This document shows positions 2,820 through 63,315 of a stretch of 64,000 nt of DNA, piece after piece. Below the pieces are notes generated by a model. The model worked only from the letters and a program-made list of their open reading frames with translations, made no database searches and was not told the DNA's origin. A program made the translations under genes and the position numbers. How positions within the stretch are numbered: position 1 is the stretch's first letter; every line of letters begins with the position of its first letter. Source of the DNA: Heptranchias perlo (lineage: Eukaryota); assembly GCF_035084215.1 (NCBI RefSeq), contig NC_090340.1, positions 14,632,001 to 14,696,000 of the forward strand, read 5' to 3'.

Positions 2820-4046
2820 ATTTAAAATAAATTTGTTGGACTATAACTTGGTGTTGTAAAATTGTTTACAATTTATAAATCGAGGCATAGAGTACAAAAG
2901 AAAGGAAGTCATGATGAACCTTTTGAAAACACTGGTTCGGCCACAACTGGAGTATTGTGTCCAATTCCGAGCAATGCACTTTAGGAAGGATGTGAAGGCC
3001 TCAGAGAGGGTGCAGAAAAGATTTACTAGAATTGTTCCAGGGATGAGGGACTTCAGTTACGTGGATAGACTGGAGAAGCTGGGCCTGTTCTCCTTATATC
3101 AGAGAAGGTTGAGAGGAGATTTGATTGAGGTATTCAAAATCATGAGGGGTCTAGACAGAGTAGATAGAGAGAAACTATCCTCATTGGCAGATGGGTCAAG
3201 AACCAAAGGACACAGATTTAAGGTGATTGGCAAAAGAACCAAAGGCGACATGTGGAAAAATGTTTTATGGAGCGAGTGGTTGTGATCTGGACTGCACTGC
3301 CTGAGGGGGTGGTGGAGGCGGATTCAATCGTGGCTTTCAAAAGGGAATTGGATAAGTACATGAAAAAATTGCAGGGTTACGGGGATAGGGCAGGTAAGTG
3401 GGACTAGCTCGAATGCTCCAACAGAGAGCTGGCACCGGCTCGATGGGCCTCCTTCTGTGCTCTAACTATTCTATGATTCTATGATTTTATGATCTTAAGG
3501 AACCCATAGGTATCGCATCGAGCGATACAAATTAGAAGATGCCTGGTTGAATTAACAGTCTCTGTTGTGTTTTAGTTCTGGCAGCAGTTATAACACTAAA
3601 ACTGGCCTGAGCGCCCAGGGAGAGGAAGAGGGCAATTATCATTAAATCCTGCTGCTGATCGTTATCCAGAGGCCGCTGCTGGAAAATGCCAGTCGGATGA
3701 GCAAGGGATGGGGCTCGACCACATGATCCCCGTCCGCACTCGCTCTCTTGACCTATGCGTGAACAGTGGTCACGTGAGCAAAGAGTGGCCGGCTGAGAAG
3801 GCGGTGCACATCCCAGCAAGAATCCACGCCTTGAGAAGGGGAGAAACGAGGAGAAACTGGCAAAGTAACCACACGAAAACAGCTCACTCTGAGAGGCATG
3901 TATACCATATTAAACAACTGTCCCATAACACCAACACCGCAAATTTTACAGATGTTTTAATGTAATAATTAACAAGATCACTCGGAAAGTGGCGACTGCG
4001 ATACGAATTCTTCAACCATACATATAAACCTGGGAAAACTGAAGAG

Positions 4047-4692: not shown

Positions 4693-4806
4693 CTTCAATG
4701 TAAGTTATTTTTATATGGTCCACAATAATATCCGTCAGTGCAAGAATTACCAGAAAACCTATGACAAGCCGACCAATCATGAGGAGCGAATTGATGAAAT
4801 TGTGAT
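4693..4806 (-). pseudogene. Transmembrane exon with intramembrane Arg (activating-type receptor); exon open but gene probably pseudogenised
   Basis: Acceptor ctgcag|, donor GAAG|gtaaga, 114 nt, phase 1-1 like the TM exons of genes A/B. Translation (D)HNFINSLLMIGRLVIGFLVILALTDIIVDHIKITYIE(G). Confidence 0.7.
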
Positions 4807-5995
4807 CTGCAGTGTAGGGTTAAAACCAAAATATAAAACTGTTGCATAAAATTTTTTCGAATGGGAGCAACAATAATTGTTTTATACAAAGGAATGGGGT
4901 CCATTAAATGTCTCGTTTAAACTGCACTCCATGGGGGTCGATTTTAACTTGCCTACATCGGCGTTGACAGCGTAATTACTGCCTCAAAATGGGTTCGGGA
5001 GACGACCACGCCTAGCACGGCGCCTTCCACTTTCACAGAGGGCCTATTGCTGGGGACTAGTACCTGTTTGTTTCAGATAGTAGGACCCTCTTCATATCTG
5101 AAACGGATGTGCAAATGACTCCGATTGCCGTTTTAAGAGCGAACTGGTGTACCCTGCACTCTCTGGCCAGTTTTACTAGAGATAGAGATAAAGAGAACTT
5201 GAATAGTTAAGTTTTAAATTATTCTTAAATGCCAGGAGGAGTGTCAATATGCGTCCCACAAAAAAAACCTGTGCCGCCGCAACCCGGGCTTCCCAATCCG
5301 GGATCGCCAGAGCCCGATTTACGTTGCTGGGCACCCAGCGGTCTCCGGGCCTCCCTGCGCACGGCATGAACGCCGGATCAGCGTTAACATCCCTGATTTT
5401 CACTTAAGTTGCCTGGGGTTGACTCCCCACATGGGAGTCTTGTTCTAACTGGCAAAGGGGTCGTGCCAAATTGTCTCCTTCTGAACTGTAATTCCTTAAT
5501 TTTACTCCAACATCTGCAGTGAGGGAAACTGTTCCGGACATTTCATGAACTGTTATATATTCGTCTGAAGAGTCCAAATCCGTAGTGGTAGCCAGAATGG
5601 ATATGCTCACCAATCCACAAGAAATTGAGGAGGGACGTGGCTCAGTGGATGAAGGCCATCCAGGCAATAGTTTACTTATATTTTTGGAAGATATTTGCAA
5701 AAGTTTTTCCTGTGAGGCTTTGAAGAAAATTCAGGCTCATAAAATTCAGGGGGAGTTGGAAAGTGATAAATGAACAAGTCTCTGTCTGGGAAGCAGTAGA
5801 GTTCTACCCGGTCCATTCTATGCTATCTAGTCTATTGATCAATAAATACAGAGGAATCACTTCTAGTAATAGCCCTAGATTTTCTGATGTCTTCAATGTA
5901 TGGATAGGTAAGAAGTAATTTAATAATACCCAAAACAATCTGGGTCATTTGCGGAAATGTCCTTGAAAGATGCTGGCTGCAGTTCTACACATAAC

Positions 5996-6309
5996 CTGTT
6001 CCAATTTTATCTTGATCAGCCGTGTAGCTGACACTGGCGGGCATCAGCAGAGAGACATGAGATACCAAACAGGTATAAACAACCCCTCTCCGGGCAGGCT
6101 GCACTTCTTCCAAAAAAATAATGGAACCTCCTATAGTCCCGCCACTCTCCTCTTTTTCACAGTTTCTACTCCAGTCAGAATTTCGACACCACCTCTTCGC
6201 CAGGAGATTCCTAAATGTTCCGGGCAAAAGGCAGCCGGTTTACACTCGAGTTTCAGAGAAGTCGGTGAAATCCCTTCAATAGAATCGATTTTCAGGGGGC
6301 TTGGGGAAA
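5996..6309 (-). pseudogene. Decayed Ig C1-set exon paralogous to the C1 of genes A/B
   Basis: PSPLKI..SLKLECKPAAFCPEHLGISWRRGG..AGL* then, after a frameshift, LEEVQP..YTCLVSHVSL. It has a TAG stop at the GLY position and an acceptor mutated to AA; donor ACAG|gttat. Confidence 0.85.
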
Positions 6310-8189
6310 TTTTAACAGAAAACATTGTCAGTATTAGTCTCCGTGTATTTATTACTGTATAATTTGGTAATGTTGCAATCTTACCTTAAACTAGAAATGC
6401 ATGGGTGCAAGTTTATCATTTCTGAACATCACAGTTTGTGCATGATTATTACAGTCGAATAGCCAAGTTTCACTAGGCGCATTCACGGGAACGAAACGAC
6501 GGCGAAGTGAATTTTCTATCGCCGGCGGTTATTAGCTTTTAGGTAGAGGCCATATTTGCTGATGTCTCTGGGCAATTTCGTAAATAATGGTGTTGAACAT
6601 AAATACAGCGCGGTGCATGTAAAGGCCGGGTTGGAATCTCAATGCAGCACAATTACCAGAAACCGCTTTCTCTGCCTGGGTGAGATCCTCCCACACTGAC
6701 CCAGTGGGATTAGATACTGTACGTAGGATTAGGGAAACTCATGAAAATTATTTTCTCCTACCACGTAATATTTTTTCCCAAAATGAAATCCAGAAGCTTA
6801 CATTTTTTTAAACGAGGAGAGAAATTAAAGCATTTCGATATTTTTAAACAAATAATTGCTCAGTCTTGATCTTTGAACCCAGCACAAAAGCTGTGTCCTG
6901 GACAACTAAACGGAAGGAAATCTATCTCTTAACGTTCTATTCCAAGCGCCCTCCGTAACCATTGCGGAATCTTCCCTATATTACAACACGCAGAACCTAT
7001 TCGCCCAGTGAAAATATGTAGGTGACTACTTTGACCGCAAGTCAAGACAATTTGGGTTACAAATTTGGGTTGGCAGTTCGAAGCGGGTGATATCGAATTG
7101 GCATCTCGTTTTTCATTCCGCTCGATGGACCTCAGTTGAGAAGGAAATCGGGCGGAATGTAAAACGGACTGCCGATTAGTTATCATTTGTATTGCGTTAC
7201 CGCACAAGACGGATTTATATCCCAATGCCACTTTGCTGTGAACAATGTCAATATAATTATTCTGGGTAAACACCGTGAAGATTTCATCTCGAGCATTAAT
7301 CCCAACAAACATATCAAAGCTTAGACCCCCGCTCCGGCTATGGCATCAAGCATAGGCCCCCAGAATGGAGAGAACTTTGGGAAACGCCTCAAAATATTAA
7401 TAAGGGGCGCCATGTTCTGGGTCCGGGCGTAAATAACTGCCGACTGCTGCTTAGTCCAACATAACCATTCAATGCGAGAGCTGATAGAATCTGTGAAGGA
7501 ACTTCAGCTCAATCAACCTTACATCCACAATGCCGGATATTTGAGACCAATTTTTTGTCCGGTTAATGTCTGTTAATTGAAATCCAAGATCCGTGTTCCA
7601 GAAATTTGGGATTCTGTAAATTAGACAGTTTCCCTACTTTATAGAAACAATTTGAATTTTGTCTCCATTGTTTGGTGGAGTTGGAATCATATTTACTAAC
7701 TCTCTCAGTGTTTACTCTGAAAGGAAAGCTTGTGCCACATTTCCAGTTGGTGAATCTGAGCCCATAGGAAGGACACCTTCACTGGGCTCTCTTTTTTTCT
7801 GAAGCACGGCTAATTAATTGCCCTCATATCACTTCCTTGAGCGCTTCATGCAAGGATGACCCAAAGACCACTGAACCATTTTCTACCGTGTGTGTTTATT
7901 GATTACTGTGTCTAGCGTTAATATGAAAGTAAAGTCGAACATGAATTCGTGGTTTATTCTTCACTGTTGAAATGTCTTGTTCTGTGAGGGTGATTGGCCT
8001 AAGATGGGAGACCACTTTTCCGTCAATACATGTACCCTGTCATGACCTATCTCCTGTGACAATGAAGCAGGGCAAGTAGCTGACCTGAAGGTAGTAGTGT
8101 CATCCAGTAGGAGCATATAATGCGAATTCGGTTTGTGCGCTCTCGACGATTTATTTGTCCATCCATTTTAATAGACTAAGAAACATGGG

Positions 8190-9896
8190 CAGCATATACT
8201 CACATTTCCCATATGGTGCAAAAGGGAGGACTTCAGATTTTTGGGGCAATGGGATCAGTTCTGGGGCAGGAGGAACCTGTCCAAGACGGACGGGTTGCAG
8301 CTCAACAGAGCTGGGACCAATGTCCTCGCGGGGCGGATCTCTAGTGCTGTGGGGGAGGGTTTAAACTAATTTGGCTGGGGAATAGGCAGGTGGATTGAGC
8401 ATTAGAAAGGAGAAAGAAGGTACACAAAGGATTGGGAACGATTGATAGCACTAGAATAAAAAATAGTACAGTATTAGGTGGGATCAGACTAAGAGAGAAT
8501 AAGACAAGGTCGAAGATAGGTTGAGAGTGCATATGTGTGAATGCACGGATCTTGGTAAATAAGATTGGTGAGCTGCTGGCGTAAATAGTCACATGGGAAC
8601 ATGATGTAGTGGCGATAATGGAGACCTGCCTCAAAAAAGACCAGGATAGGGTGCTAAATATTCCTGGATACAAGTTGTTCAGGACAGATAGGGCAGGAAT
8701 AAAAGGTGTAGGGGGAGGGGTGGCAGTATTGATTAAGGAGAATATTGCAGTGCTGGAAAGAGAGAATGCCCTTGAGGGGTCAAGGACAGAATGTATTTGG
8801 TTAGAGTTAAGAAACAATAGAAGCACCATTAAACTACTGGGTGTGTTCAATAGACCACCAACTTTGGCAGCTTCTCTTCCTTGGTAAAGACAGATGCAAA
8901 ATATTTGTTTAGTACCTCAGCCATGCCCTCTGCCTCCATGCGTAGATCTCTTTTTTCATCCCTAAACGGTCCCACCCATCCTCTTAATTGCCGTTTACTA
9001 CTTATATGCAGATAGAAGACTTTTGGGTTCACTTTTATGTTAGCCACCAGTCCATTCTCATAATCTCTCTTTGCCTCTCTTACTTCCTTTTTCACTTCTC
9101 CTTTCTTTATCTACTCAGCCTCGTTCTCACTTGTATTATCATCCTGACATCTGTCATACGCCCTCTTTTTCTGCTTCATCTTACTCTCTATCTTTCGTCA
9201 TCAAGGGAGCTGTGACTTTGGTTGCCCTACCTTTCCCCCTTGTGGGAATGTTCTACAGAAAAGAGGAGGTAGTTGTGACACGGGATGGGCTAAAAATTGA
9301 TAAAGAGGAGCTCATAGAAAGGCTGGCTTTACTTAAAGTAAATATGTCAACCGGTCTGGATGGGATGCAACCTTGGTTGCTGAGGGAATTAAAGGTGGAA
9401 ATTGCAGGGGTGCTGTAATCTTCAATGCACGTTAGATTTGGGGGTGGCACCAGAGGACTGGAGAATTGCAAATATTACATCCTTGTTCAATAAAGGTTGT
9501 AAGGATAAACCCTGCAACTAGAGGCCAGTCAGTTTCACCTCGATGGTGGGGTACTTTTAGAAACGATAGTCCAGGACATAATTAATATATGCTTGGACAA
9601 GTGTGGATTAATAAAGGAGAGACAGCACGGATTTGTAAAAAGCAAATCGTGTTTAACTAACTTGATCGAATTTTTTAATGAGTCAACAGAGAGGGTTGAT
9701 GAAGGCAATGCGGTTGATGTGTATATAGACTTTAACAAGGCGTTTGATGAAGTGCCACGGAATAGGCTTGTCAGCATATCTCATATGCACAAATCTTTGA
9801 AGGTGTCAGGGCAGGTTGAGAAAGCGGTTTATAAAAGCCTACGGGATCCTAGGCTTTATAATAGAGGAATTGAGTGCAAAAGCAAGGAAGATATAA
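8190..9896 (+). mobile_element. Degenerate CR1 (ORF1 esterase end, APE endonuclease, RT fragments) with an internal inverted segment ~8863-9251
   Basis: ORF 8609 is APE-like (ETCLK...NIPGYKLFRTDR..GGGVAVLIK). ORF 8847-9095 is ORF2 on the opposite strand. ORF 9593 has QHGF..SCLTNL..DFNKAFD. Confidence 0.8.
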
Positions 9897-11143
9897 TAAA
9901 AGTGACGACGTACGAAGGTAGATTTCACATATCAACTACTCTAAAATGAATATTTCTGCTCTCACTACCGAGATATTCCGACCCATTTATAACATGATTC
10001 CGTGAGGATCTCTGCACTTCAAAATGTCTAACGTATTGCTGTTTGCTGAAATCGGCAATCGCTGTGCCTGTGGCCCCGGACAACGTTGCTTTCCGTTTCA
10101 AGTGATGCACCAGTTATCCTCCCTTTGTGTCACGTGGAACCGTCTCGTTCTCCCTCTGAAGTTTTGTAAAAGAAACAACAGTAAATGTAAAACTGTGCTT
10201 CATTATTTTTAAAAGCGGCATCGCGCCCCGGTGATGATCATAACCATTAGAAATGCGGATCTAGAAAATACACACCCAGAAACCCAGACCTAAGAAAGCA
10301 TACCGCCATAATCTACAAGACACCAGCATCTAAATCCAGCTCCGGTTGCCTCTTTGTGGGTGAACAAACCAAAGCTTGGTGAAATCGGCTTGTAATGTTT
10401 ATCCAAGGGTAAAAAGCGATTTCGCAAGAAATGCTTGGCTGCCACAACCCAATTTTCCCTGTGGTAGCTTTTCGGAAATTCCCTGCTTAAATCCACCTCA
10501 CATGTTTTGTTTAATTTATTTTTCGTCCAGCTCTGATTGAATTGTATTGAATCCATGTATCAAAACGAGAATCACATTGCTCTTGCTTAGCAATACATCG
10601 GGAAATCTATAAAACAGGATTTGATTCAAAGTCTTGCAGATTACGGCACTGTGTAAGACATGCGTTCCATAAAGCATGGTTTAACCCCTTGTGGTCAGTT
10701 TCTATCTTTACTACTTTATATAATACATTTCTAGTGTCTTGCCGTGGCTTGCTACTCATTTGCATTCCCTTACGTCTAAGTGAATGTATTATTGCTTTCA
10801 GTCGGACGTTGTGTCCTTTGGAGAAAACGAGAGAATGGAGTGGGCATCCTGCATAATCTTTGTTGCACCATACTGCATTTGGCGGGTAATTGTTAACCCC
10901 TATGCCCTCGTGGCACAATGACAATGCAGGTTTCTTTTTATATGAGACTTCTTCCTGCTTATGCAACCAACGTTTCTGCAGTGGCTTAAAGTTACAAGTA
11001 TTGAAAGTCCAGTCTGTTCCAACCTATTTCCTGAATCGGCAGACACATGCCCAACGTCATTGCGTCACAATTCGTAATACGCGGTCCGCAACAACCAAAT
11101 CCATGCACAGTGCGGGAGCGATCACCTTACTCCTTTGCTCAGA

Positions 11144-11816
11144 ATGTTGACGAGTTTTGTTTTTTCTCCGAGAGATCATTTACACAGGTACCTACAATTC
11201 TATAACCCAGCTGCCTCGATAAACAAAAACATGTGAAATGGTTTCCTCTGAAATACAATGAAATTTAAATCTCTCCCAATTTTGCTTCTTTCTTTTTTTC
11301 ATCTCCACGTCGTGTCTAATACAATTAACCAAACTTTGAATGTATTTCCTGACAGACGCTTCTAGTATTTCGATCAGTCACAACTTCTTGAACAAGCAAT
11401 TACATTCAGAGGAATACACATCACCTTCGACTGCATATTCTACTGAATATAAATTCAGTGCAATTTATTTCATCTTCGCGATTCTTCTTTATCTCTTTCA
11501 TTTGCAGGTAGAAATGTGTTTTAAAGAGTCTGGTTCTGCGTCCAATGCAATTATCCAAACTTTGCATGTATTTTCTAACATCTGCGGCGCCTATTTCGAT
11601 CTGAGTGGCTCAAATTCCCGAACAGGTGATTGCATTCAGAGGGACACACATCATCTTCGACTGTGTAATCTCCCTCTTTCAAGTCAACTCTTGGATAGAA
11701 GTGCTTTGGTGGAAAAAGGTTGAGAATGAATACCTGCAAAGTGGAACTTATAGCAGAAAATGACTTGGTTTGAAAATTAAAGGAAGCGGTTTCTTTCAGT
11801 TGCTGAACGCGACTTT
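11144..11816 (+). pseudogene. Leader + V pseudogene (copy 1)
   Basis: Leader-like exon 11144-11187 (44 nt, frameshifted) ends ...TTTACACAG|gtacc as in gene A. A partial V start lies at ~11356-11445. A second V at 11582-11816 (AAPISI*VAQIPEQ..FDC..WWKK..*..GFFQLLNATF) has two stops and a dead acceptor and is cut by CR1. Confidence 0.85.
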
Positions 11817-12236
11817 AAGAACCATAAGAAATAGGAGCAGGAGTAGGATACACGGCCCCTCGAGCCTGCTCCGCCATTCAATAAGATCATGGGTGATCTT
11901 CTACCTCAACTCCACTTTCCCACCCTATCCCCATATCCCGTGATTCCCTTAGTGTCCAAAAATCAATCGATCTCAGTCTTAAATATACTCAAGGACTGAG
12001 CATCCATAGTCCTCTGGAGTGCCAAAAATTCACAACTCTCTGAGTGAAGACATTTTCCCTCATCTCGGTCCTCAATGGCCGTCCCCTTATCATGAGGCTA
12101 TGGCTACAAGTTCTAGACTTTCCAGCCAGGGGAAACAGCGTCTCAGCATCTACCCTGTCAAGCCCTTTAAGAATGTTATAAGTTGCAATGAGATCACCTC
12201 TCATTCTTCGAAACTCCTGAAATTATAGGCCCATTT
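11817..12236 (-). mobile_element. CR1 3' end truncating the pseudo-V
   Basis: ORF 11989-12204 MRGDLIATYNILKG; tail aagaaccataagaaataggagcagg. Confidence 0.8.
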
Positions 12237-15200
12237 TATGACGCAGAAAAACTGCCAGATTTTCTGTTTTTATTTTACATTTCAGTATTCTCTGTTATCT
12301 CTCTTGTCTACTGGTATTGCTTCAGAGATGCTGCATATATCATACTGTAACTAAAGGAGCCAGCCTTTGGCTTAGTGGTAGCACACCCACCTCTGAGTCA
12401 ACAGGTGCACAGTTGAACCCCTACTACAGACCGCCCTGACCAGTGGATACGAGAGCTCCAGCTCTGGGTTCACATCCAACGCGATACAGACTCCCAGTGG
12501 GTGAGGGTGGCCAGCGTATAAGTTGTGCCAGCAAATTTCTTGCCGTACAGGGCGAACAATTTTATTGGCTAGTATAACGATGGGTATAACCATGAAAGGA
12601 GCGTCCTGTGAACCTACGACTCCTTCCCTTAATTCACACTAAGGCAAGATACAAAAACAACGACCGGAACTAACGTCACGGCAGAAGCATAATCAGTGGC
12701 TCCACTTGATTGGAATATTCGAATTTGAACTACAACTGAGCTAAAGAATTATCAATGGAAATAAAAATGGGGAGAGATGTAAAACCGGTTGCCGAATCGA
12801 GATCAACCGTTTTACATTATCGCACAAAATCAAAATCTACCGCAATGAGTTAGGAAACCGCCCCTTCATGTCTGAGAACCAGTTTTAAATCGCCAGTACA
12901 TACTAATTGGAATCTCATTGTTTTCGATGTGTTAAATGAGATTTAACAATCGTAAGCCTGAATCCAGTGAACTTGAGCCCACAGCAGAAAATTGTCCCTA
13001 AATTATGAATCTCGCTTAGAGAGATAAGACGGGAGGCTATTTTGGAAACTGTTATCCTGCTCCAGTCCTCCTCGCAATTTCTTATTAAACGATACTATTC
13101 GAACAGCGTAGAGGGAGCCGCAACTAACTTGTACTGCACGACCTATTTTTTCGAAAGCCGTTTTGTGAATTTCTAATGGCCCCTTCCCTTTCCCAGTGAT
13201 TATAAAGGTTATCTCTTACAATCCCTTCTAGTATCTCCCCAAAATGGATGTCAAGCTCTGATTTGTCCCCTTTTTGGAAACTAGGATTGGGTTTGGAACA
13301 GCGCGGTAAATAGCTCTTCAGAACAAACGGAATTACTGGAAATGATACACGGCCTAGCACGGTAATTTAAAATATATCACTTTCAGAAAAGCGTGTGTTA
13401 CAAAGAGATTGTACAATTATATTATTGGCCAGTGAGAATTTCGCTCTGGAAGTGAACCCAATTTTAATGTTCACAGCTTACAGGGTTATAGGGTCGATTT
13501 ACTTCTTTTTATTAAGAATTGTAAAATGTTTCGTCATTTCATCTTGCATCATTGTGAGTAGGCAACATGGGTGTCTAGAAGATGTTAAGGCTTCATATAT
13601 AGTAACAAACTATACGCATTGTATTTACGTCGCTGTATCCCCAGCCAGCCCAATACAGAGTGTTGTCAGTTATTTAAGTTATCTAATCGACTCAGTCGTT
13701 TGCATTCATATAATTTTTAAACGAGATCATAACGATTTACAACTGAGAACTTTTCAACGTCAAATGGCGATAAAGACTAAGAGCTCCAAACCAGTCAATA
13801 AGGCTTTCCATGTACGTCTCAACAGAAACTGAAATTGATATAACTTATCACTCGGGGGCGATTGCACCATGTCATTAACAAGTCAGCTTCCATTCATCGA
13901 ACGAACTGTTTCTCACACGAAACCGGTGAATACATTTCTTGAATTAACTTGTGTTATCCATGTAAATGATACAATAAAACGTATGTATAACGACAATTGA
14001 AATAGAAAAAAATGCAGCTACGCCCATCCCAAGTCCTAGTTTTCTCCCCATCTCAACTTGACCAGCCGGTGGCTGGTGGCCAACACTCTGCGCGCACAAT
14101 CTACGCTCCAAATCAAAATTCCAATTGTAAAAGCCAGTTGAAACTGGCATTTCTACCGCCCCAAAATAAATAAGCGGTTCCAACTGATTCCATCCCCCCA
14201 CTTTTGCTGTAAAATTAGCCTATAATCTGTTAATTAGGTATTCCGCGATTAAAGAGAGAAATAAAGGGGGTTATTCTATTCGTTTCAAATGCAACTTTTG
14301 GTAATAGAATAGCATATTGGTGTCCTTTAGGTTACACTCTCCCTCAAGCTAATGGAAAAAAAAATCGGGAGAGATGCAAAACGGGCTGCCGATTCGCTAA
14401 TGCCCATTTTACTTTCTCGCATGAAGTCAAAATTACCCTCCTTGTGTTTTACATGGAAGAAAGAATGATCTGAGACGGCATTTTTGGACAGTGCAGCGCT
14501 CACACAGAGTACCGAAGTCGCAGTCTATATTATGTGCTGAAGTCTCTCGAGTGGGATTTGAAGCCACAATCTTCCAACATTCGATAGATTCTGGAACTAT
14601 TCCTGCAGATTGGAGGGTAGCAAATGTAACCCCACTATTTAAGAAAGGAGGGAGAGAGAAAACAGGGAACTACAGGCCTGTTAGCCTGACATCAGTATTA
14701 GGGAAAATGAATCTGTTATAAAGCATGTGATAATAGGACACTTAGAAAATAATAATAGGATTTGGCAAAGTCATCATGGATTTATGAAAGGGAAATCATG
14801 TTTGAAAAACCTATTGGAGTTCTTTGAGGATGTAGCTAGTAGAATAGATATGGGGAACCGGTGGATGTGATGTATTTGGATTTTCAGAAGGCTATCGATA
14901 AGATCCCACACAGGAGGTTGGAGAACACAGTTAGAGTGCATGGAATTGGGGGTAATATGGGGGTATATATTGGGGGTAATTGGGGGAGCACATGGATTGA
15001 GAACTGGTTAACAGACAGAAACAGAGAGTAGGAATAAACGGGCCTTTTTTAGGTTGGCAGACTGTGACTAGTGGGGTGCCGCAAGGATTGATGCTTGGGC
15101 CCCAGCTATTCGCAATATATATCAATGATTTGGATGAGGGGAACAAATGTAATATTTCCAAGTTTGCTGATGACACAAAACTGGGTGGGAATGTGAGTTG

Positions 15201-20642: not shown

Positions 20643-23600
20643 GTACCTCTTTATTCACAAGAACAGCTACTTTAATTTATAAAACATTTTCCGAAGTCGT
20701 TTCCACATAAATGCAATGAACGTAATTCCTCTATCTAGATTCATTTTTCTCTCTTCCATCTCCATGTCGTATCTAATACAATTATCCCGGATTTGACTAT
20801 TTTCTCTGACAGCTGCGGACCACAGTTCGTTCAGAGTGACTCAAGCGCCCGAACAGGCGATTGTATCCAAAGGGGGAGACATCACCTTCTACTGCATATT
20901 CCCAATCTCTCAAACCCATTCCTGGGTAAGAGTGTATTGGTGGAAACAGGGTGAGGATGAATACCTGCCAAGAAGCGCCGATAAGAGAAAACGATTTGGT
21001 CTGGAAGGTAAAGCGAGAGGTTTCTTTCAGTTAATGCGCGCGACTTTCCAAGACTCTGGAGTCTATCACTGCGCAGTGATCCGAGAGGGAATAGTTGGAG
21101 GAAATGGAACCGGATCACATCTCATTGTGCATGGTAAGTGTGAAACACCACAGAGCGGGACTGTCGCAAACATATCAAACATAACAAAGGGGAATGTTTT
21201 GTGATTGTTTTATTGTAGTTTTTGACAGTATAAACATTTCTGCGATCACATTTCGCGAGAATGTTAAGTTGCATTTTCGTGTTCTCTATATAGAACTACC
21301 AATTTGAGAGTAAAATATAACCCTCCACACTGAGAGTACAGCAAAATGTTTAAATGATAAGCAATTGGCCTGTAACTCCAAATAAATTTATACACCAGAT
21401 ATCTGACAGCGGAAGTTCAGAACAAATTCCAAGCTTATAACTGAGTGAAAATGGTTTATATTAACACGCTTCCCCCACCATATACACGGCTCTTAGCCCA
21501 TTTTGAATGGTCTGTCTGCTCCCATCTCCGTCTCTAGGGTTTAACACTCTTGAAATTAATTCTCACATCATGTTTGGCTCGTTAGCGTCACGGATTTGAA
21601 AGCCAGCGTGCAACTAACTGTTGATTAACGGATTCACTTAACAAACTGGAGCTTGGAATTCACAACGTTGTCGCCTCACTAACCCCCAATAAATACAATA
21701 CGCCGGAACTGTGTTGCTGAAACCTCCTGAGGTTCAACCGAATATAGTTCGTTTCACCAATCTTCATGCTTCGGCTGTGAGATCAGTCCGATACCTGCTA
21801 ATGCCCTCCTTTTATCATCGCAATGTGCAGATCACTCGTCACTTTCTAACTGAGTAAAAAAAATGGAGGACTGGGCGCGCCAACTTTCCCCCAGGGTTTA
21901 TTTGTTTAATTCTTTGGACGATGAAACGTGACATTGATTAGCAATCGTTGCGAGGCGTCTGCTGAGTAACTCAAAGTGCATGTAACGCAGTGCATGTAAA
22001 CAAATGCCGGTGACGATGAGTGATATGGATGAGGTGTGTGTTGACGATCTGCCTAACATTAACAGGACAGGAGACTGTGCTTTAGAATGTTGCTGTTAGA
22101 ATAAAATGGACCGATGGTAAATAAGAATCATATTTAATTTCTCCCAATGGTGCCCAGTAACTCGATTTTGTTCATTCTCTGTTCCGCAGCTCCCCCAACT
22201 CCACTGAAGATTGTCTCCAGGACAGCTGAGGGGAATTCATCTGCGACTCTGACTCTTGTGTGTGAAACGGCTGAGTTTTATCCGGAGAATTTCACCCTCG
22301 CTTGGTATAAAAACGGCGTTGTAATTGCAACAGGAATAAATACCATTAAACGGCAGAACACTGAGGGGCTGTATGAAGTTTCCAGCTCTTTGGAAGAGAC
22401 GCAGTATGTCCCGAGCGGCACGAATTATACCTGTGTGATATCTCACGTCTCGCTCAAGACTCCAGCTATTGTCACCTATAGTGTTACGAAATCTAACCAA
22501 GGTACGAGGCCAACAGTCCAAGAGGATAGTTAAAATCGCAAACAGATATATCGTATAGTTTGCAAACAAATATATTGTAGAGCTTGTATTGATAATCATG
22601 AAGATATTTCGCTGGAAACGCATGGGAAATAATCACAAAAACATAAAATTCTTGTTTTAATGTATAATATAATTGAACCCAATGTGTTGTAAAACGGGGT
22701 TATATCGTCCATAGCACAAATTTTGTGTCAAACCTTATTTGCCTTCAACTTCCTCTATTTTACGTATAACGAATGGAAACAGGAGTTTATCTTTTGTATC
22801 CCATTATATTTCTCTCCTGCTTAGTATTAATACATCTTCGGGTTTTTTTCCGTTTTAAATGGTTTCATTCTTTACCACTGCCGGCTTTCCCTGCATCAGG
22901 ATAATTACCATGAGCTGCAGTGAACTTTTTTTTATTCGTTCATGTGATGTGGGCGTCGCTGGTAAGGACAGCATTTATTACCCATCCCTAATTGCCCTTG
23001 AGAAGGTGGTGGTGAGCCGCCTTCTAGAAAGGCTGCATTCCGTGTGGTGAAGGTTCTCCCACAGTGCTATTAGGTAGGGATTTCCAGGATTTTGACCCAG
23101 CAGCGATGAAGCAACCGCGATATATTTCCAAATCGGGATAATGTGTGACTTGGAGGGGAACGTGCAGGTGGTGTTGTTCCCATGTGCCTGCTGCTCTTGT
23201 CCTTCTAGGTCGCGGGTTTGGGAGGTGCTGTCCAATGAGTCTTGGCGAATTACTGCAGTGCATCCTGTGGATAGTACACAATGCAGACACGGTGCGCCGA
23301 TGGTGAAGGGAGTGAATGTTTAGGGTGGTGGATGGGGCGCCAATCATGCGGGCTGCTTTGTCCTGGATGGTGTCAAGCTTCTTGAGTGTTGTTGGAGCTG
23401 CACTCATCCAAGCAAGTGGAGAGTATTCTATCACACTCCTGACTTGTGCCTTGTAGATGGTGGAAAGGCTTTGGGGAGTCAGGAGGTGAGTCACTCGCCG
23501 CAGAATACTCACCCTCTGACCTGCTCTTGTAGCCACAGTATTATGTGGCTGGTCCAGTTAAGTTTCTGGTCAATGGTGGCCCCCAGGATGTTGATGGTGG

Positions 23601-26600
23601 GGCATTCGGCGATAGTAATGCCGTTGACTGTCAAGGGGAGGCGGTTAGACTCTCTCTTGTTGGAGATGGTCGCTGCTTGACACTTGACAGGTGCGAATGT
23701 TACTTGCTACTTATCAGCCCAAGCCTGGATGTTGCCCAGGTCTTGCTGCACGGACCGCTTCATTTTCTGAGGGGTTGCAAATGGAATGGAACACTGTTCA
23801 ATCATCAGCGAACATTCCCATTTCTGACCTTATGATGGAGGGAAGTTCATTGATGAAGCTGTTGAAGATGGTTGGGCCTAGGACACTGCCCTAAGGAACT
23901 GCTGCAGCAATGTCCTGGGACTGAGATGATTCACCTCCAACAACCACTGCCATCTTCCTTTGTGCTGGTATGACTCCAGCCACTGGAGAGATTTCCCCCT
24001 GATTCCCATTGACTTTAATTTTACTAGGGCTCCTTGATGCCACACTCATTTAAATGCTGCCCTGATGTCAAGAGCAGTCCCTCCCATCTCACCTCTGGAA
24101 TTCAGCTCTTTTGTCCATGTTTGGACCAAGGCTGTAATGAGGTCTGGAGCCGAGTGATCCTGGCGGAACCCAAACTGAGCATCGGTGAGCAGGTTATTGG
24201 TGAGTAAGTGCTGCTTGATAGCACTGTCGACGACACCTTCCATCTCCTTTCTGATGATTGAGAGTAGACTGATGGGGCGGTAATTGGCCGGCTTGGATTT
24301 GTCCTGCTTTTTGTGGACTGGCCATACCCAGGCAATTTCCCACATTGTCGGGTTCATTCCACTGTTGTTGCTGTACTGGAACAGTTTGGCTAGAGGCGCG
24401 GCTATTTCTGGAGCACAAGTCTTCAGCATTACAGCCGGGATGTTGTCGGGGCCCATAGCCTTTGCTGTATCCAGTGCACTCAGCCGTTTCTTGTTACCAC
24501 GTGGAGTGAATCGAATTTGCTGAAGACTGGCTCCTGTGATGGTGGAGATATCGGGAGGAGGCCGAGATGGATCATCCACTCGGCACTTCTGGCTGAAAAT
24601 GATTACTTGCTTAATTGCTCTCGGACTTCTCTCCTTTTTTATATTCGTTCACGGGACGTGGGCGTCGCTGGCGGGCCAGCATTTTATTGCCCATCCCTAA
24701 TTGCCCTCGAGAAGGTGGTGGTGAGCCGCCTTCTTGAACCGCTGCAGTCCGTGTGGTGACGGTTCTCCCACAGTGCTGTTAGGAAGGGAGTTCCAGGATT
24801 TTGACCCAGCGACAATGAAGGAACGGCGATATATTTCCAAGTCGGGATGGTGTGTAACTTGGAGGGGAACATGCAGGTGGTGTTGTTCCCATGTGCCTGC
24901 TGCTCTTGTCCTTCTAGGTGGTAGAGGTCGCGGGTTTGGGAGGTGCTGTCGAAGAAGCCTTGGCGAGTTGCTGCAGTGCATCCTGTGGATGGTGCACACT
25001 GCAGCCACAGTGCACCGGTGGTTAAGGGAGGGAATGTTTAGGGTGGTGGATGGGGTGCTAATCAAGCGGGCTGCTTTGTGTTGGATGGTGTGGAGCTTCT
25101 TGAGTGTTGTTGGAGCTGCACTCATCCAGGCAAGTGGAGAGTATTCCATCACACTCTTGACTTGTGCCTTGTAGATGGAGGAAAGGCTTTGGGGAGTCAG
25201 GAGGTGAGTCACTCGCCGCAGAATACCCAGCCTCTGACCTGCTCTCGTAGCCACCGTATTTATATGGCTGGTCCAGTTAAGTTTCTGGTCAATGGTGACC
25301 CCTAGGATGTTGATGGTGGGGGATTCGGCGATGGTAATGCCGTTGAATGTCAATGGGAGGTGGTTAGACTCTCTCTTGTTGGACATAGCCATTGCCTGGC
25401 ACTTATCTGGCGCAAATGTTACTTGCCACTTATGAGCCCAAGCCTGGATGTTGTCCAGGTCTTGCTGCATGCGGGCTTGGACTGCTTCATTATTTGAGGG
25501 GTTGCGAATGGAACTGAACACTGTGCAGTCATCAGCGAACATCCCCATTTCTGACCTTATGATGGAGGGAAGGTCATTGATGAAGCAGCTGAAGATGGTT
25601 GGGCCTAGGACACTGCCCTGAGGAACTCCTGCAGCAATGTCCTGGGGCTGAGATGGTTGGACTCCGACAACCACTACCATCTTTCTTTGTGCTATGTGTG
25701 ACTCCAACCACTGGAGAGTTTTCCCCCTGATTCCCGTTGACTTCAATTTTACTCGGGCTCCTTGGTGCCACACTCGGTCAAATGCTGCCTTGATTTCAAG
25801 GGCTGTCACTCTCACCTCACCTCAGGAATTCAGCTCTTTTGTCCATGTTTGGACCAAGGCTTTAATGAGGTCTGGAGCCGAGTGGTCCTGGCGGAACTCA
25901 AACTGAGCATCGGTGAGCAGTTTATTGGTGAGTAAGTGCCGCTTGATAGCACTGCGGACGACACCTTCCATCACTTTGCTGATGATTGAGAGTAGACTGA
26001 TCGGGCGGTAATTCCCTGTTGACAGTTCTCAACCCTGACAGCAACCCCCTAACCACCCCTGCCCCCACCCAATTCGGCTACCACTAGTGCAGAGTTCTGA
26101 AATTAAATCTCTGTCCAACTTGTAGGCCACATCTCTCCATGCCACCGCGGGTTCGATTGGGACGATTGTCACAAATCTCATGTAAACTGTACCCGCAAAT
26201 TGGCGACATTGCAGCCGGTTCAATATATAATTGTATTAAAAACTCTTAGCTTTGCCAGACAATAATTAATAAACCATCGCCCGTTGATTTCCTTCACTAT
26301 TCAGTGACATTCTTACTTCAATAAACACAGTGCGGATCATTGAATGAGGGTTATTAACCAATTGCTGCAATCCAGAATTTTGTGCGGGCAGCGAGTAAAC
26401 CCGTGTGAACAAATTCCCCCCGATTTCCTCAAACTATATGTTAATGAATAAGAATGGTCAAGGACATAAAGAAGTCATTCTGTCCAGGGAAATTTCTCCC
26501 CCTCATATTCGAACTCTGCGAAAACAATGTGTTGAGATCCCTAAACGGTCGTCACCTTCGCAGATTATTCCAGAATATCTCATCCACTCGATGAAGAAGT

Positions 26601-28310
26601 CACTTCAAATAAGATATCTAAAAAAAATAAGTATTTTTTATTTAGACTGCCTTATTATCGTTCTATACAGCGGAATTACTGAAAGCATCAATAGTTTAAA
26701 CAATTAACGATCTTTCGGCCTCTTTTTAGCAAACGCCCGCCATAACATAATGTTCCTATTAATCTTGCAGCTGGTGTCATTGATGTGTCCTTTTACTTCT
26801 GGGTGCCTATTTGTGCGGTGGCTGGATTGGTGTTTCTAGTGCTCATGGTCTTCATTGGGAGGCGGTGCGGATTGCAGAATAATGAAGGTAAGTTGATTTT
26901 AGTCCGAAACCTCAAGGTTAGTGAGAGTCTCTGGGTAATACACGGGAAGGAGAATTCGATTAGGACTTAAAGTTGAAGGCAATGTTATGTGTTTTCAAGG
27001 ATTGTTCCAACTGCACATTAAAACGCAGAAATCCTCACAGAATCATATTAAAATTGGAGATAATTATCTGGATATTTGTAACAGAAAGTTATAATTTGCA
27101 GCAAGTGATAAATCAACTGTGCTCTGACACACAGTCACTTTCCAACCCATTACGTTGTGGATGCGTAATGACTTTGAATGAAAACATGTGAGGCCCCGGC
27201 CCGGCAATGGTTTTACACCGTTGTTAATCGCTGCAGGGGCTGGGATTCAAACACTGTCAGCATAATCTGAAATTGAAAATTATGTTCGGCTTTGTACCGA
27301 CTCTAGAAATGTCTTTGAAATCACTGAATGGAAACTGAATAACTGTCAATCTTTCAATATCATTAAATTTCATTCGTTTCCAGGTAAACAGGAACGTGTA
27401 ATGGGACCGACCCGCCGTGAAGAGCTGGTACGTTCATTCATTCATTCTCTGCAGACGGTTCAAATGCGAAGAAAGATTGCTATAATGGAGAGATATTATC
27501 ACAATACTGCCAGAACAGTTCAAGTATATTTACCAAAAGCGTTTGTCCGGCTTAGTGAATCATTCAAATCGTGGTTAGAAAAGTATTTGGCAACCGGTGC
27601 GTTGCTGCCAAAAACGTTAGATAGCCGACAAGAAAACTGCTAGTTTCGTTTAAAATGTACCTCGTTAATAACTGTTTATAGAGTCATCTATTGTCTGTAT
27701 TTGAACAAATACTTTATGTTCTAAAACTGCCGCTTATTTAAACATTCCTGTAACACAGTGTTGTAGAGTGAATATTGACAGGTTTAAATATTAGTTATAG
27801 TGACCACAGCACACATCAGCTTTAATATTCGTACTTATGCCAATATATTAATTATGCTTTGTGCACTTGATCTCTTGCCCAGCTCATTTTGTTTAATGTT
27901 TCGTCAGCAGTACGTAAATTGGTGAAGGCAACGACTAGCCAAGTAACCGAATATTTGCTTTCTGGCCCGTGCAGGGAGCAGAAGCTGAGATCGTGCATTA
28001 TGTTGCATTAGATTTGAGCAAAGACATGAAAATTCCAAGACGTAAAGGTGAAGAGCAGAGGACCGTGTACGCTCAGGTAAGGCAGAGTAACAGATCAGAG
28101 AAACATAGATCATCAGCTGAACAGCAACATTCATGCGATGGTGGGATATTTAAGGTTGTGCTTTGATCTTGTATTGTATCTAAAGCTATTTGTGTATTAT
28201 TCTGATGGCTGCTTGGAGCAGCAGTCCACAAAACTTGCAATACGTCCAATCAACAATATTTCCAAACATTGGCTTTACAGAAACACAAGGGACAGCCCGT
28301 GACAAGCTGA
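20588..28310 (+). CDS. Gene A: non-rearranging IgSF receptor L-V(J)-C1-TM-ITIM, SIRP-alpha-like, ~326 aa with a truncated tail
   Basis: Exons 20588-20642, 20813-21133, 22190-22501, 26771-26887, 27384-27427, 27975-28076 and 28281-28310. All introns are GT-AG with compatible phases (1,1,1,1,0,0). Confidence 0.85.
20813..21133 (+). CDS. Gene A exon 2, Ig V-set domain with J-like G strand
   Basis: VTQAP..ITFYC..VYWWKQ..FQDSGVYHC..GNGTGSHLIV; gacag| acceptor and G|gtaagt donor. Confidence 0.92.
22190..22501 (+). CDS. Gene A exon 3, Ig C1-set domain
   Basis: LTLVCETAEFYPENFTLAWYKNG..GLYEVSSSL..YTCVISHVSL, a classic C1 pattern. Confidence 0.92.
22926..24600 (-). mobile_element. Poly(A)-tailed LINE (same family as 16022-17877) in intron 3 of gene A
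   Basis: ORFs 24046-24579 and 23024-23536; poly-T plus the family 3' UTR at 22926; frameshifted. Confidence 0.9.
24633..26013 (-). mobile_element. Second LINE copy of the same family in intron 3 of gene A
   Basis: ORF 24697-25815 (372 aa RT) and the same 3' UTR. Confidence 0.9.
26771..26887 (+). CDS. Gene A exon 4, uncharged transmembrane segment
   Basis: FYFWVPICAVAGLVFLVLMVFIGRR; ttgcag| acceptor and GAAG|gtaagt donor. Confidence 0.85.
27384..27427 (+). CDS. Gene A exon 5, cytoplasmic
   Basis: 44 nt, GKQERVMGPTRREEL, ttccag| and |gtacgt; same length in gene B. Confidence 0.75.
27975..28076 (+). CDS. Gene A exon 6, ITIM exon
   Basis: GAEAEIVHYVALDLS...EQRTVYAQ; VHYVAL fits the ITIM consensus. 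Confidence 0.82.
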
Positions 28311-28453
28311 CGGACGCAATTCTAGCATTGACTGGCTCAGTGAAAAGTGCGCAATGCAAAAATGACGAAAGAAGCACCGACTATGCCCAGCTACAAACGC
28401 AAAGCCAAAATAGAGTAACAGAGGCTGTTTACTCCGAAGCAAGAATCAAATAG
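28281..28453 (+). CDS. Gene A exon 7 (frameshifted; stop at 28308-28310, ancestral stop at 28453)
   Basis: 1 nt shorter than gene B just after the acceptor, giving KHKGQPVTS*. AATAAA at 28774-28779. Confidence 0.65.
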
Positions 28454-52140: not shown

Positions 52141-55100
52141 ATGTCGGCGAGTATGGTGTTTCTGTGCTTGACGCTCCGGGGGATTATTTACACAGGTACC
52201 TCTTTATTCACAAGAACAGCTACTTTAATTTATAAAATGTTTCCGAAGTAATTTCCACATAAACGAAGTGAAAGTAATTCCTCTCTCTCGATTCATTTTC
52301 TCTCTCTTCCATCTCCATGTCGTATCCAATAAAACTAACCCGTACTTGACTAAATTTTCTGACAGCTGCGGACCACAGTTCGTTCAGAGTGACTCAAACG
52401 CCCAAACAGGCGACTGTATCCATAGGGGGAAATATCACCTTCTACTGCATATTCCCCATCTCTCAAACCCATTCCTGGGTAAGAGTGTATTGGTCGAAAC
52501 AGGGTGAGGATGAATACCTGCACAGAAGGGGCGATAAGAGAAAACGATTTGGTCTGGAAGGTAAAGCGAGCGGTTTCTTTCAGTTACGGAACGCGACTTT
52601 CCAAGACTCTGGAGTCTATCACTGCGCAGTGATCCGACAGGGAACAGTTGGAGAAGATGGAAACGGATCGCATCTAATTGTGCATGGCAAGTGTGAAACA
52701 CCGGAGAGCGGGACTGTCGTAAACATATCAAACATAACAAACGGGAATTTTTTTGTGATTTGCTTTATTGTACAGTTTCTGACAGTATAAACATTTCTAT
52801 GAACACTTTTTGCGAGATAGATAAGTTTTATGTTCGTGTTCTCTGCATAGAACTGCCAATTAGGTAGTACAATATAACCCTCCACACGCAGGGTACTGTA
52901 AAATGTATCAATGTTAAGCAATTGGACTGTAACTCCAAATAAATTTATACACCAGAGGTTTGATAGCGGAATTTCGGAAAAAAAATTCAAGCTGAATGAA
53001 AATTGTTTATATTAATGCGCTTTCCCCACTATAGACACGGTTGTTAGCCCATTTTGGCTGCTCTGTCTGCCCCCATCGCTGCCTCTGGGGTTTGACATTC
53101 TTGAAATTAATTCTCACATGATGATTGGCTCGTTAGCGTCACGGATTTGAAAGCCAGCGTCCAACTAACTGTTGATCAACGGATTCACTCAACAAAGTGG
53201 AGCTCGGAATTCACAACGTTGTCACCTCACTAACCTCCAATAATTACAATAATACGCAGGAACTGTGTTGCTGAAATCTCCTGATATAGTTTCTTTCACC
53301 AATCGTCATGCTTCGGCTGTGAGATCTGTCCGATACCGACTAATGCCCTGGTTTTATCATCGGCAATGTGTAGATTACTCGATTACTCGTCACTGTCTAA
53401 CTGAGTAAAAAAATGGAGGACTGGGCGCGCCAACTTTACCCAGGGTTTATTTCTTTAATTCTTTGGACTATGAAACGCGACATTGATTAGCGATTGTTGC
53501 GACGTGTCTGCCGTGTAACTCAAAGTTTTGGACTCGATGGTGCATGTAAAATTGAACAGATACCGGTGACGATGAATGATATGGATGAGGTGTGTGTTGA
53601 CGATGTGCCGAACTTTAACAGGACAGGCGGCCGTGTTTTGGAATGGTGCTGTTTTAATAAAATGGACCGAAGGTAAAGAATCATATTTAATTTCTCCCAA
53701 TGGTGCCAAGTAACTCGACTTTGTTCATTGTCTGTTCCGCAGCTCCCCCAACTCCACTGAAGATTGCCTCCAGGACAGCTGAGGGGAATCCATCTGCGTC
53801 TCTGACTCTTGTGTGTGAAACGGCAAAGTTTTTTCCGGAGAATTTCACCCTCGCTTGGTGTAAAAACGGCGTTGTAATTGCAACAGGAATAAATACCATT
53901 AAACGGCAGAACACTGAGGGGCTGTATGAAGTTTCCAGCTCTTTGGAAGAGACGCAGCCTGTCCCGATCGGCGCCAATTATACCTGTTTGGTATCTCATA
54001 TCTCCCTCCAGACTCCTGCTGTTGTGACCTATACTGTTACGAAATCTGAACAAGGTACGAGGCCAACAGTCCAAAAGAGCAGTTAAAATCGCAAACAGCT
54101 ATTTCGTAGAATTTGTACATATTGACAATCATGAAGATAGTTCACGGGAAACTCATGGGAAATATCAACGAATACATAAAATTCTTGTTTTATTGTATAA
54201 TATAATTGAACTCGATGTGTTGTAAAACACGGTTATATCGTCCGGTACACAAATATTCTCAGTCAAATCTTATTTGCCTTCAACTTCCTCTATTTCAGGA
54301 ATAACAAATATAAACAGGAGTTTATCTTTTGTATCCCATTATATTTCCTCTCCTGCTTATTATTAATACTTTTACGGGTTTTTTTTCTATGTTAAACTGG
54401 TTTTATTCTTTACCACTGCCGGCTTTCCCTGTATCAGGACAATTACCAGGAGCTGCAGTGGACGTGTTTGCTCTTTGGCTTCTTCCAATGCAGTTCTCAA
54501 TCCTGTGAACCCCCCTTCCCCTTCCGGCTACGTCTGGTGCACAGTTCTGAACTGAAATCTCTGTCCAACTTCTACCCCACATCTCTTCATGCCACAGCGG
54601 GTTCGATTGGGACCTCTCTCATAAATCTCATGTAAACTGTACCCTCAACTTGGTTACAGTGCAGCCGGTTCACTATATCATTTGATTAACAATTCTTAGC
54701 TTTGCCAGACAATAATTAATAAACCGTCGCCCGTTGATCTCCTTTACTCGTCAATGACATTTTTACTTTAATAAATACAGTGCGGATAATTGAATGAGGG
54801 TTATTAACCAATTGCTGCAATCCCGAATTTTGTTCGGGCAGCGAGTAAACCCGTGAGAACAAATTCCCCCCACCGATTTTCTCAAACTATATGTTAATGA
54901 ATAAGAATGGTCAAGGACATGGACAAGTCATTCGGTCCAGGGAAATTTATCCCCTTCATTTTCTAATTTTCCTAAAACATTGTTTTGTGATCCCTAAACG
55001 GTAGTCACCTTCGCAGATTAATCCAGAACGTCTCATCTATTCGATGAAGGAGTTACTTCAAATGTTATATCTAAAAAAATAACGTTTTTTTATTTACACT

Positions 55101-56815
55101 TTCTTATTTTTGTTCTGTACAGCGGAATGACTGAAAGCATCAATAGTTTAACCAATACACTATCGTGCGGCCTCTTTTTAGCAAACGCCCGTCACAACTT
55201 AATGTTCCTATTAATCTTACAGCTAGTGTCATTTACTTCTGGGCTCTTGGGTGTGCGATGGGTGGATTGGCGTTTCTCGTGCTGATGATCGTCATTGGGA
55301 AGCGGTGCCGTCTGCAGAATAAAGAAGGTAAGATCTACTGTAAAAGCTTGATTTTAGACGAAACCTCAGGGTGAGAGTCTCCGGGTAACAGAGAGGAAGC
55401 AGAACTCGATTTTAACTTAAAGTTGAAGGCAATGGTTTCTGTTTTCAGGGAGCGCAGATTGTTCCAACTACACGTTAAAACGCAGAAATCCTCACATAAT
55501 TGTATTAAAATTTGCGATCATTATCTGGATGTTTGCAACAGAAATTGACAATATACAGCAAGTGATAAATGAACTGTGCCCTGGCACACAGTCACTTTCC
55601 AACCCATTACTTTGTAGGTGCGTAATGAGTTTGAGTGAAACCGTGTGAGGCCCCGGTCCTGGAATGGTTGTGCACCGTTGTTAATCGCTACAGGGGTTGG
55701 GATTCAAACATTGTCAGCACAAACTGAAATTGAAAATTATGTTCGCTTTCTACCGAATCTAGAAATTTCTTTGATATCGCTGAATGGAAACTGAGTAAAT
55801 TTGTCAATCTTTCAATTTAATTTAATTGGTTTGCAGGTGAAGAGGGGCGTGTAATGGGACCGACCCGCCATGAAGAGCTGGTACGTTCATTCATTCATGC
55901 TCTGCAGAGGGTTCAAATGTGAAGAAAGATTGCTTTCATGGAGAGATGTTATCACAATCATGTCAGTACGTTAGGTGGCGGACAAGAAAACTGCCAGTTT
56001 CGTTTAAAATGTACCTATGTTTTAACGGTTTATAGATTAATCTATTCCTTTAATTTGAAAAAATTACTTTTATGTTCTAAAGCGGCCTTTCATTCAAACA
56101 TTTCTGTAACACAGTGTTGTAGAGCGTATACTGACAGGTTTAAATATTAGTTATAGTGACCACAGCACTCATTGGTCTCAATATTCTTACTTATGCCAAT
56201 ATATTAATTATGCTTTGTGCACTTGATCTCTAGCCCAGGTCATTCTGCTCAATGTTTGGTAAGCAGTTCTTAACCTGGTGAAGGCAATGAACTAGGTACG
56301 TAATCAATCATTTGCTTTGTGGCCCATGCAGGGAACAGAGGCTGAGATCGTGCATTATGCTGCATTAGATTTGAGCAAAGCCAGGAAAACTCCAAGACGT
56401 AAAGATGAAGAGGAGAGGACCGTGTACGCTCAGGTAGGGATGAGTAACAGATCAGAGAAACATAGATCATGAGTGTAACACCAACATTCATGCGATAGTG
56501 GAGTATTTCGGGTTGTGCTGACTTTGATCGTGTGATGTATCTAAAGCTATTTGTGTATTATGCTGATGACTGTTTAGAGCAGCAGTCCACAAAACTTGCA
56601 AAACGACCAATCAACAATATTTCCAAACATTGGCTTTACAGAACAAACAAGGGGCAGCCCGTGACAAGCTGACATACGCAACGCTAGCATTGACTGGCTC
56701 AGGGAAAAGGGCGCAATACAAAAATGACGAAAGAAGCACCGACTATGCCGAGCTACAAACGCAAAACCAAAGAAGAGTAACAGAGGCTGTTTACTCCGAA
56801 GCAAGAATCAAATAG
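52141..56815 (+). CDS. Gene B: non-rearranging IgSF inhibitory receptor L-V(J)-C1-TM-ITIM, SIRP-alpha-like, ~370 aa
   Basis: Exons 52141-52195, 52366-52686 (GC donor), 53743-54054, 55223-55327, 55837-55880, 56332-56433 and 56642-56815. The spliced frame is open for 1113 nt; AATAAA at 57152-57157. Confidence 0.85.
52366..52686 (+). CDS. Gene B exon 2, Ig V-set domain
   Basis: ITFYC..VYWSKQ..DSGVYHC..GEDGNGSHLIV. Confidence 0.9.
53743..54054 (+). CDS. Gene B exon 3, Ig C1-set domain
   Basis: LVCETAKFFPENFTLAWCKNG..YTCLVSHISL. Confidence 0.9.
55223..55327 (+). CDS. Gene B exon 4, uncharged transmembrane segment
   Basis: VIYFWALGCAMGGLAFLVLMIVIGKR; 12 nt shorter than in gene A, frame kept. Confidence 0.85.
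56332..56433 (+). CDS. Gene B exon 6, ITIM exon
   Basis: GTEAEIVHYAALDLSKARKTPRRKDEEERTVYAQ. Confidence 0.82.
56642..56815 (+). CDS. Gene B exon 7, ITIM/ITSM-like terminal exon
   Basis: NKQGAARDKLTYATL...STDYAELQT...AVYSEARIK*. Confidence 0.82.
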   Translation, partial: NKQGAARDKLTYATLALTGSGKRAQYKNDERSTDYAELQTQNQRRVTEAVYSEARIK

Positions 56816-63228: not shown

Positions 63229-63315
63229 GTACGAGGCCAACAGTCCAAGAAGGAGAGCCAGCTACTGTTAAATTCTTAAACAGATATTTCATAAAGTTCG
63301 CTCATATTAATAATA

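Follow-up and report, generated by a model that had tools for sequence, protein, structure and literature searches.

We consider it probable that a transmembrane (TM) exon, intact on the minus strand of a 64,000-nucleotide stretch from Heptranchias perlo (the window, hereafter), comes from a V-C1 receptor of cartilaginous fish, that the Arg-bearing class of this exon serves activating receptors which signal via an ITAM adaptor, and that the copy in the window is a pseudogene.

The exon at 4693..4806 is a genuine membrane-anchor exon. It lies where the initial annotation had placed it, on the same strand, in phase 1-1 and with the same donor, GAAG/gtaag, at 4693/4692. The acceptor is pyrimidine-rich and ends in ctgcag (...ccctacactgcag/ at 4807/4806), with the exon starting as cag/AT. 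Including the phase-1 base, its translation is DHNFINSLLMIGRLVIGFLVILALTDIIVDHIKITYIE. The Arg codon occupies 4771-4769, and a private Asp (codon 4732-4730), present in 0/11 homologs, lies inside the hydrophobic core. A scan of the window for stop-free, hydrophobic, phase 1-1 segments bounded by YAG and GTRAG returned three distinct exons, namely the TM exons of the neighboring genes A and B and the exon at 4693..4806, against a mean of 0.07 exons for the same scan on 30 locally shuffled windows. When nine homologous TMs were used to build an HMM, with the window exon left out, the model matched this exon with an E-value of 3.9e-11 and presented no other significant match in the six frames of the window. 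The shuffled-window scan and the HMM match rule out a chance exon. The exon shares 71% identity over 38 aa with protein P0004 and 49% with P0085. Pfam assigned no family to it, and two read sets presumed to be RNA, their type being guessed, yielded no contig across it. The coordinates of the exon and of the features around it are listed in Table 1.

Table 1. Features of the receptor family located in the window (position 1 is the first nucleotide of the window)
Feature	Positions	Strand	Remarks
Possible last exon	3884..4029	minus	47 codons, preceded by ttttcccag (phase-1 acceptor); homologous to the tail predicted for P0004
TM exon, R-x16-D-H class	4806-4693	minus	114 nt, phase 1-1; frame and splice sites intact
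C1-TM intron, inferred	4807..6010	minus	1204 nt; colinear tblastn matches of P0085 on either side
C1-set Ig pseudo-exon	6011..6309	minus	stop, frameshift, both splice dinucleotides lost
Gene A, V-C1-TM-tail, inhibitory-type	20806..28453	plus	tyrosine-motif tail
Gene A exons	V 20806-21132, C1 22190-22501, TM 26771-26887, tail near 27383, 27975, 28286	plus	
Gene B, V-C1-TM-ITIM, inhibitory-type	52356..56812	plus	tyrosine-motif tail
Gene B exons	V 52356-52685, C1 53743-54054, TM 55223-55327, tail near 55836, 56332, 56624	plus	

Among 193 proteins fetched, all homologs being automatic gene models, 11 have a TM that matches the window exon, nine with Arg and two with Gln at the position of the Arg. 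The Arg carriers belong to eight species: Heptranchias, Scyliorhinus canicula (two proteins), Mustelus, Carcharodon, two Chiloscyllium, Heterodontus and the chimaera Callorhinchus. All 11 homologs keep the same register, in which Arg or Gln is followed by exactly 16 uncharged residues and then by D/E/V-H/Y, which is here called R-x16-D-H. The residue at +17 is acidic in 10/11 homologs and also in the window exon; the residues preceding the Arg vary among homologs and include Pro. According to the gene models, the TM follows a C1 domain in each of the 11, and a single C1 is found in these class members and in gene A. The initial annotation had allowed that the Arg could be a decay mutation lacking in paralogous exons, and this is ruled out, as far as gene models go, by the nine homologs that retain it in the same register. 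Members from rays were absent among the matches obtained. The Gln-bearing forms of the class, P0009 and the P0050 cluster, occur in Heptranchias and carpet sharks and are possibly non-signaling.

The grouping of the 11 R-x16-D-H carriers in one C1 clade was rejected (p-AU 5e-64), on a quick tree of about 105 columns and for a TM class that had been defined from the TM sequence after the first tree was seen. This rejection suggests that the TM exon moves between ectodomains, and the Arg cassette appears to sit on unrelated C1 lineages. There is also a second Arg class of nine proteins (P0012, P0021, P0028, P0029, P0065, P0077, P0086, P0089 and P0104), from sharks and rays, in which an ITIM-type TM carries Arg in the aligned column where Gly is the commonest residue. 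Their tails are mostly short, and none is a multi-ITIM tail. This class likely arose from ITIM-type TMs and would have reached the Arg independently, by substitution; such a route has been proposed for activating KIRs, in a passage of PMC6557307.

Within the family, the Arg is associated with the loss of ITIM tails. In 94 family TMs, at least two tail tyrosine motifs were found in 0/18 Arg-TMs and in 34/76 others (Fisher p 1.9e-4), as counted with a self-made motif pattern that was fitted to the family. The 94 TMs derive from 205 proteins, after those longer than 520 aa (39), those in which the C1 motif was missing (14) and those lacking a TM (41) had been left out and identical TMs merged. 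The median tail has 17 aa in Arg-TMs against 81.5 aa in the others; short tails, in either group, may reflect truncated gene models. Among the 76 non-Arg TMs, 42 likewise do not reach two motifs, in part probably because their models are truncated. As exceptions, one motif occurs in the 81-aa tail of the Arg-TM protein P0077, and a single formal match in each of P0085 and P0104. When corrected by the quick C1 tree, 10 independent pairs were obtained, with 6.5 going the expected way and 0 the opposite way (sign test, median p 0.016, range 0.008-0.125).

On the C1 tree, an Arg form and an ITIM form frequently come out as sisters. In Heptranchias, P0004 (Arg) and P0008 (ITIM) are identical at 112/120 ectodomain residues, and in catshark the C1 domains of P0012 (Arg) and P0018 (ITIM) are 98% identical. 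Since Arg and ITIM forms with near-identical ectodomains occur within a species, the V-C1 family of cartilaginous fish is, judging from its predicted proteins, a paired-receptor family, and the definition given in a passage of PMC3533184 fits it. ITIM-tailed members of inhibitory type include genes A and B, P0002, P0007 and others; the family is also clustered, with two genes and several pseudo-exons within 64 kb, and the named members from any one species lie on contigs of a single length.

Sharks possess adaptors of the FcRgamma/CD3zeta type, and we propose a mechanism for the Arg class that makes use of them. Since the 16 residues after the Arg are too few to cross the membrane alone, the helix would begin some five residues ahead of it, which would place the Arg in the helix's outer third. 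In this position it could form a pair with the Asp in the TM of FcRgamma or CD3zeta, as the TM Arg of NKp46 and NKp30 does according to a passage of PMC6514059. A ligand recognized by both the receptor and its ITIM twin would engage the V domain, and the signal would pass through the adaptor; the twins with neutral TM and ITIMs would inhibit. Exon exchange or gene conversion has likely carried the cassette from one ectodomain lineage to another, and the cluster would turn over by birth and death, with the window copy as a relic.

Two other readings of the Arg have to be weighed. It might mark where the membrane begins on the outside or serve in trafficking, in which case the short-tailed forms would be non-signaling decoys or B7-H6-like ligands. 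We regard this as unlikely, because only 16 uncharged residues separate the Arg from the D-H in 11/11 homologs, and because the nine further ITIM-type TMs with Arg in the same column lack multi-ITIM tails, a link that a boundary residue does not predict; on its side are the two class members with Gln, the variable residues before the Arg, with Pro among them, the automatic name 'NCR3 ligand 1-like' and the precedent of SIRPgamma, a known non-signaling member of a paired family in a passage of PMC3533184. Alternatively, the class could be activating with a different partner, be it DAP12/DAP10 or another V-C1 chain that forms a TCR-like heterodimer with it, the C-terminal Asp being involved. The acidic +17 residue kept in 10/11 homologs and the missing Asn of the NxxR motif would agree with this, as would SIRPbeta, which has similar domain types and uses DAP12 (passage of PMC3533184). 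We hold it nevertheless to be quite improbable, since FcRgamma/CD3zeta are described as the partners of Arg, and DAP12 as that of Lys (passages of PMC6514059 and PMC6557307), and FcRgamma-coupled TMs, too, have acidic residues at their C-end (passage of PMC6557307). Coupling of the Arg class to an FcRgamma/CD3zeta-type adaptor is the reading that we prefer.

The state of the copy in the window is a separate question. A C1 exon lies upstream of the TM exon on the minus strand, at the distance of about 1.2 kb given by the initial annotation, which corresponds to the inferred intron. Residues 186-220 and 220-258 of catshark P0085 flank this intron in tblastn and join at the same Asp. By C1 identity the closest relatives of the pseudo-exon are P0044 (70%), P0092 (67%) and P0085 (61%); P0085 was discarded as strict ortholog, since two ITIM-type Heterodontus C1 domains are closer. 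In the C1 pseudo-exon, AA replaces AG at the homologous acceptor (6311-6310), an in-frame TAG occurs at 6133-6131, a frameshift is found between 6124 and 6111, beside a T7 run, and AT replaces GT at the homologous donor (6010-6009). A cryptic in-phase donor is present 15 nt beyond the homologous one, at 5996/5995. The first half of the broken C1, 60 aa long, gave no match when searched against proteins. The V-domain HMM, made from 108 family sequences, located no V exon on the minus strand of the 64-kb window, the V exons and remnants being on the plus strand only, and no other C1 exon was found upstream on the minus strand within the window. The ORF at 6929-7345 was suspected to be a V remnant and rejected; Pfam gave no family for it.

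Reads were also informative. A read-derived contig presented 0 differences to 6245-6657, in one DNA sample that is probably the assembly's own, and hence the AA acceptor is present in reads; the frameshift sits at the T run, and no exact read-derived contig was displayed over the stop and the frameshift. The same runs gave diverged contigs, with 25 differences in 274 for the TM exon and 31 differences plus one gap in 370 for the C1. Several copies of about 90% identity exist beside the window copy in the same DNA sample. At position 6238, a depth of 38/48 corresponds to the consensus Thr codon of the other copies, where the window copy has Pro, and the other copies account for roughly four times the depth of the window copy.

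Because its upstream C1 exon is broken, the window copy, formed by the TM exon and the C1 pseudo-exon, is likely dead, a pseudogene; the missing V exon and the private Asp in the TM core point the same way. The activating-receptor signature claimed by the initial annotation needs to be divided: for the exon class it finds support in the Arg kept, the position after a C1 and the loss of ITIM tails, and for the window copy as a working receptor it finds none, given the C1 nonsense codon, the frameshift, the lack of AG/GT and the missing V. That the copy is a working gene, its lesions being assembly errors or its TM exon being spliced to another ectodomain, is very improbable: in favor are an intact TM exon between two intact splice sites, a cryptic C1 donor that is in phase and a frameshift that is at a homopolymer, but four independent C1 lesions, an AA acceptor seen in reads (probably of the assembly's own sample) and a minus strand upstream without V or other C1 exon in the window speak against it.

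Concerning the tail, read-through past the TM exon donor gives GKKMLY and a stop, in agreement with the initial annotation, and its statement that an ITIM exon is absent downstream was borne out, no homolog of the ITIM exons of genes A and B being found there. The segment 4029-3884 matches the predicted tail of P0004 with 60% identity over 52 aa, this single automatic gene model being the support for a last exon there, and with this match GKKMLY need not be the only tail; the segment might also be a non-coding flank. It contains one formal match to the ITIM consensus, IWYTCL, unlike the family tail type. This was rejected as a true ITIM, since it is not of the family type and depends on one gene model. 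At a minimum, the match identifies the TM exon with its 3' flank as a paralog of that of P0004, and the C1 of the same copy belongs to another subfamily.

The family profile search returned 58 proteins at E <=1e-30, and 57/57 of the named ones are from cartilaginous fish; further family proteins were the best 150 from a search of representatives. The sequences point to a family that spans from chimaera to sharks and rays, with inhibitory and activating-type members. Pfam domains of the family are V-set and C1-set. It had been hidden under conflicting automatic names, such as SIRP-like, tapasin-related, class II beta-like, Ig lambda-like and 'NCR3 ligand 1-like'. The best PDB matches were UrIg2 (9e-22), SIRPalpha as second (5e-21) and antibodies, none of them decisive. 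A TM-only profile against the PDB gave six chance matches to serpins and 0 mammalian TMs, and an Atlas search with the TM part alone gave scores below 0.8. In the literature, no title or abstract describing the family was found, nor any that combines shark with ITIM and C1; the papers on PRARP, the primordial immune complex and shark NCR3, or their supplements, could already list the genes.

The family resembles the LILR/PIR, KIR, SIRP and PILR systems in its clustered genes with near-identical ectodomains (definition in a passage of PMC3533184) and in having ITIM-tailed members with neutral TM beside short-tailed members with basic TM. It differs from these paired Ig-like receptors in the ectodomain, which is one V plus one C1, in the lineage, cartilaginous fish, and in the two Arg routes within one family, by TM cassette and by substitution in an ITIM-type TM.

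Human LRC TMs have nearly the same distance between Arg and acidic residue as R-x16-D-H. The NxxR TM of LILRA, NKp46, GPVI, FcalphaRI, OSCAR and Xenopus FCRL/SLAM-like proteins shares with the shark class the N-terminal Arg, the acidic C-end and the short tail, and in both one TM exon type is reused on different ectodomains (passages of PMC6557307, PMC2413239 and PMC4536121). An Arg near the TM N-terminus is found in the window exon and in 9/11 homologs. In contrast, the Asn three residues before the Arg occurs in 1/11 homologs (P0113) and is absent from the window exon, and the shark ectodomains are V-set plus C1-set, not of LRC type. At the place of the DYT start of NxxR, the sequence is DHN in the window exon, DHS in P0085 and P0009, and other in the rest. 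The likeness to NxxR is one of features. The words 'shark' and 'cartilaginous' do not appear in the main texts of PMC6557307, PMC2413239 and PMC4536121.

The mammalian SIRP ectodomain is V-C1-C1. The shark family is like SIRP in its V-set and C1-set domains, in its ITIM and activating members and in many automatic names; it has one C1 against two, SIRPbeta uses DAP12, and membership in SIRP fails. The SIRPalpha score in the PDB search is level with those of UrIg2 and antibodies and does not point to orthology. NKp30/NCR3 is alike in its V domain, its TM Arg and its FcRgamma/CD3zeta-type logic (passage of PMC6514059), but it is a single IgV without C1 and the shark family is V-C1, so membership fails here as well. 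The non-rearranging VJ-C1 proteins PRARP, UrIg and UrIg2 also have a single-exon V that ends in a G-x-G last strand and is followed by C1; UrIg2 differs in its three C domains, and the passages concerned mention no ITIM/Arg pairing (PMC10751288, PMC12227049).

It is tempting, if doubtful, to see in cartilaginous fish a large cluster of V-C1 paired receptors, not yet described in these terms, whose mobile R-x16-D-H exon would represent the ancestral NxxR FcRgamma-docking cassette of tetrapods. If this were true, the activating cassette would date to the jawed-vertebrate ancestor and would be tied to non-rearranging, antigen-receptor-like V-C1 chains. To our knowledge, sharks have so far provided few candidates for NK or myeloid receptors. 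The pairs P0004/P0008, P0012/P0018 and P0031/P0033, and P0085, are intact candidates for the study of adaptor coupling and of the origin of paired signaling; the window copy is likely dead and hence unsuitable as test construct.

Genes A and B both present the V-C1 arrangement with an unsplit V exon. The C1 and TM of gene A are identical to those of XP_067853518.1, labelled Heptranchias perlo, and the C1 and TM of gene B to those of XP_067853519.1. In the last tail exon of gene A (28286-28450) the Tyr of one ITIM-type motif is lost, with LTDAIL in the place of LTYATL of the paralogs, and the gene model P0001 exits the frame of this exon early. In gene B, the V exon is intact and was omitted from the automatic model P0003, and in its C1 a Cys replaces the Tyr after the core Trp.

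A retroelement (117-2873) adjoins the broken gene on its downstream side and has a 652-codon open frame at 596-2554 (RT, PF00078) between 513-nt inverted repeats that are 99% alike. It looks young, and by its layout we take it to be Penelope-like. A duplicated segment of 2.4 kb (9893-12238 and 47028-49396) is 86% identical between its copies, and each of them includes a truncated V pseudo-exon with stops (11572-11817 and 48720-48963). A frameshifted C1 pseudo-exon, of the type of genes A and B, is located on the plus strand at 62918-63251.
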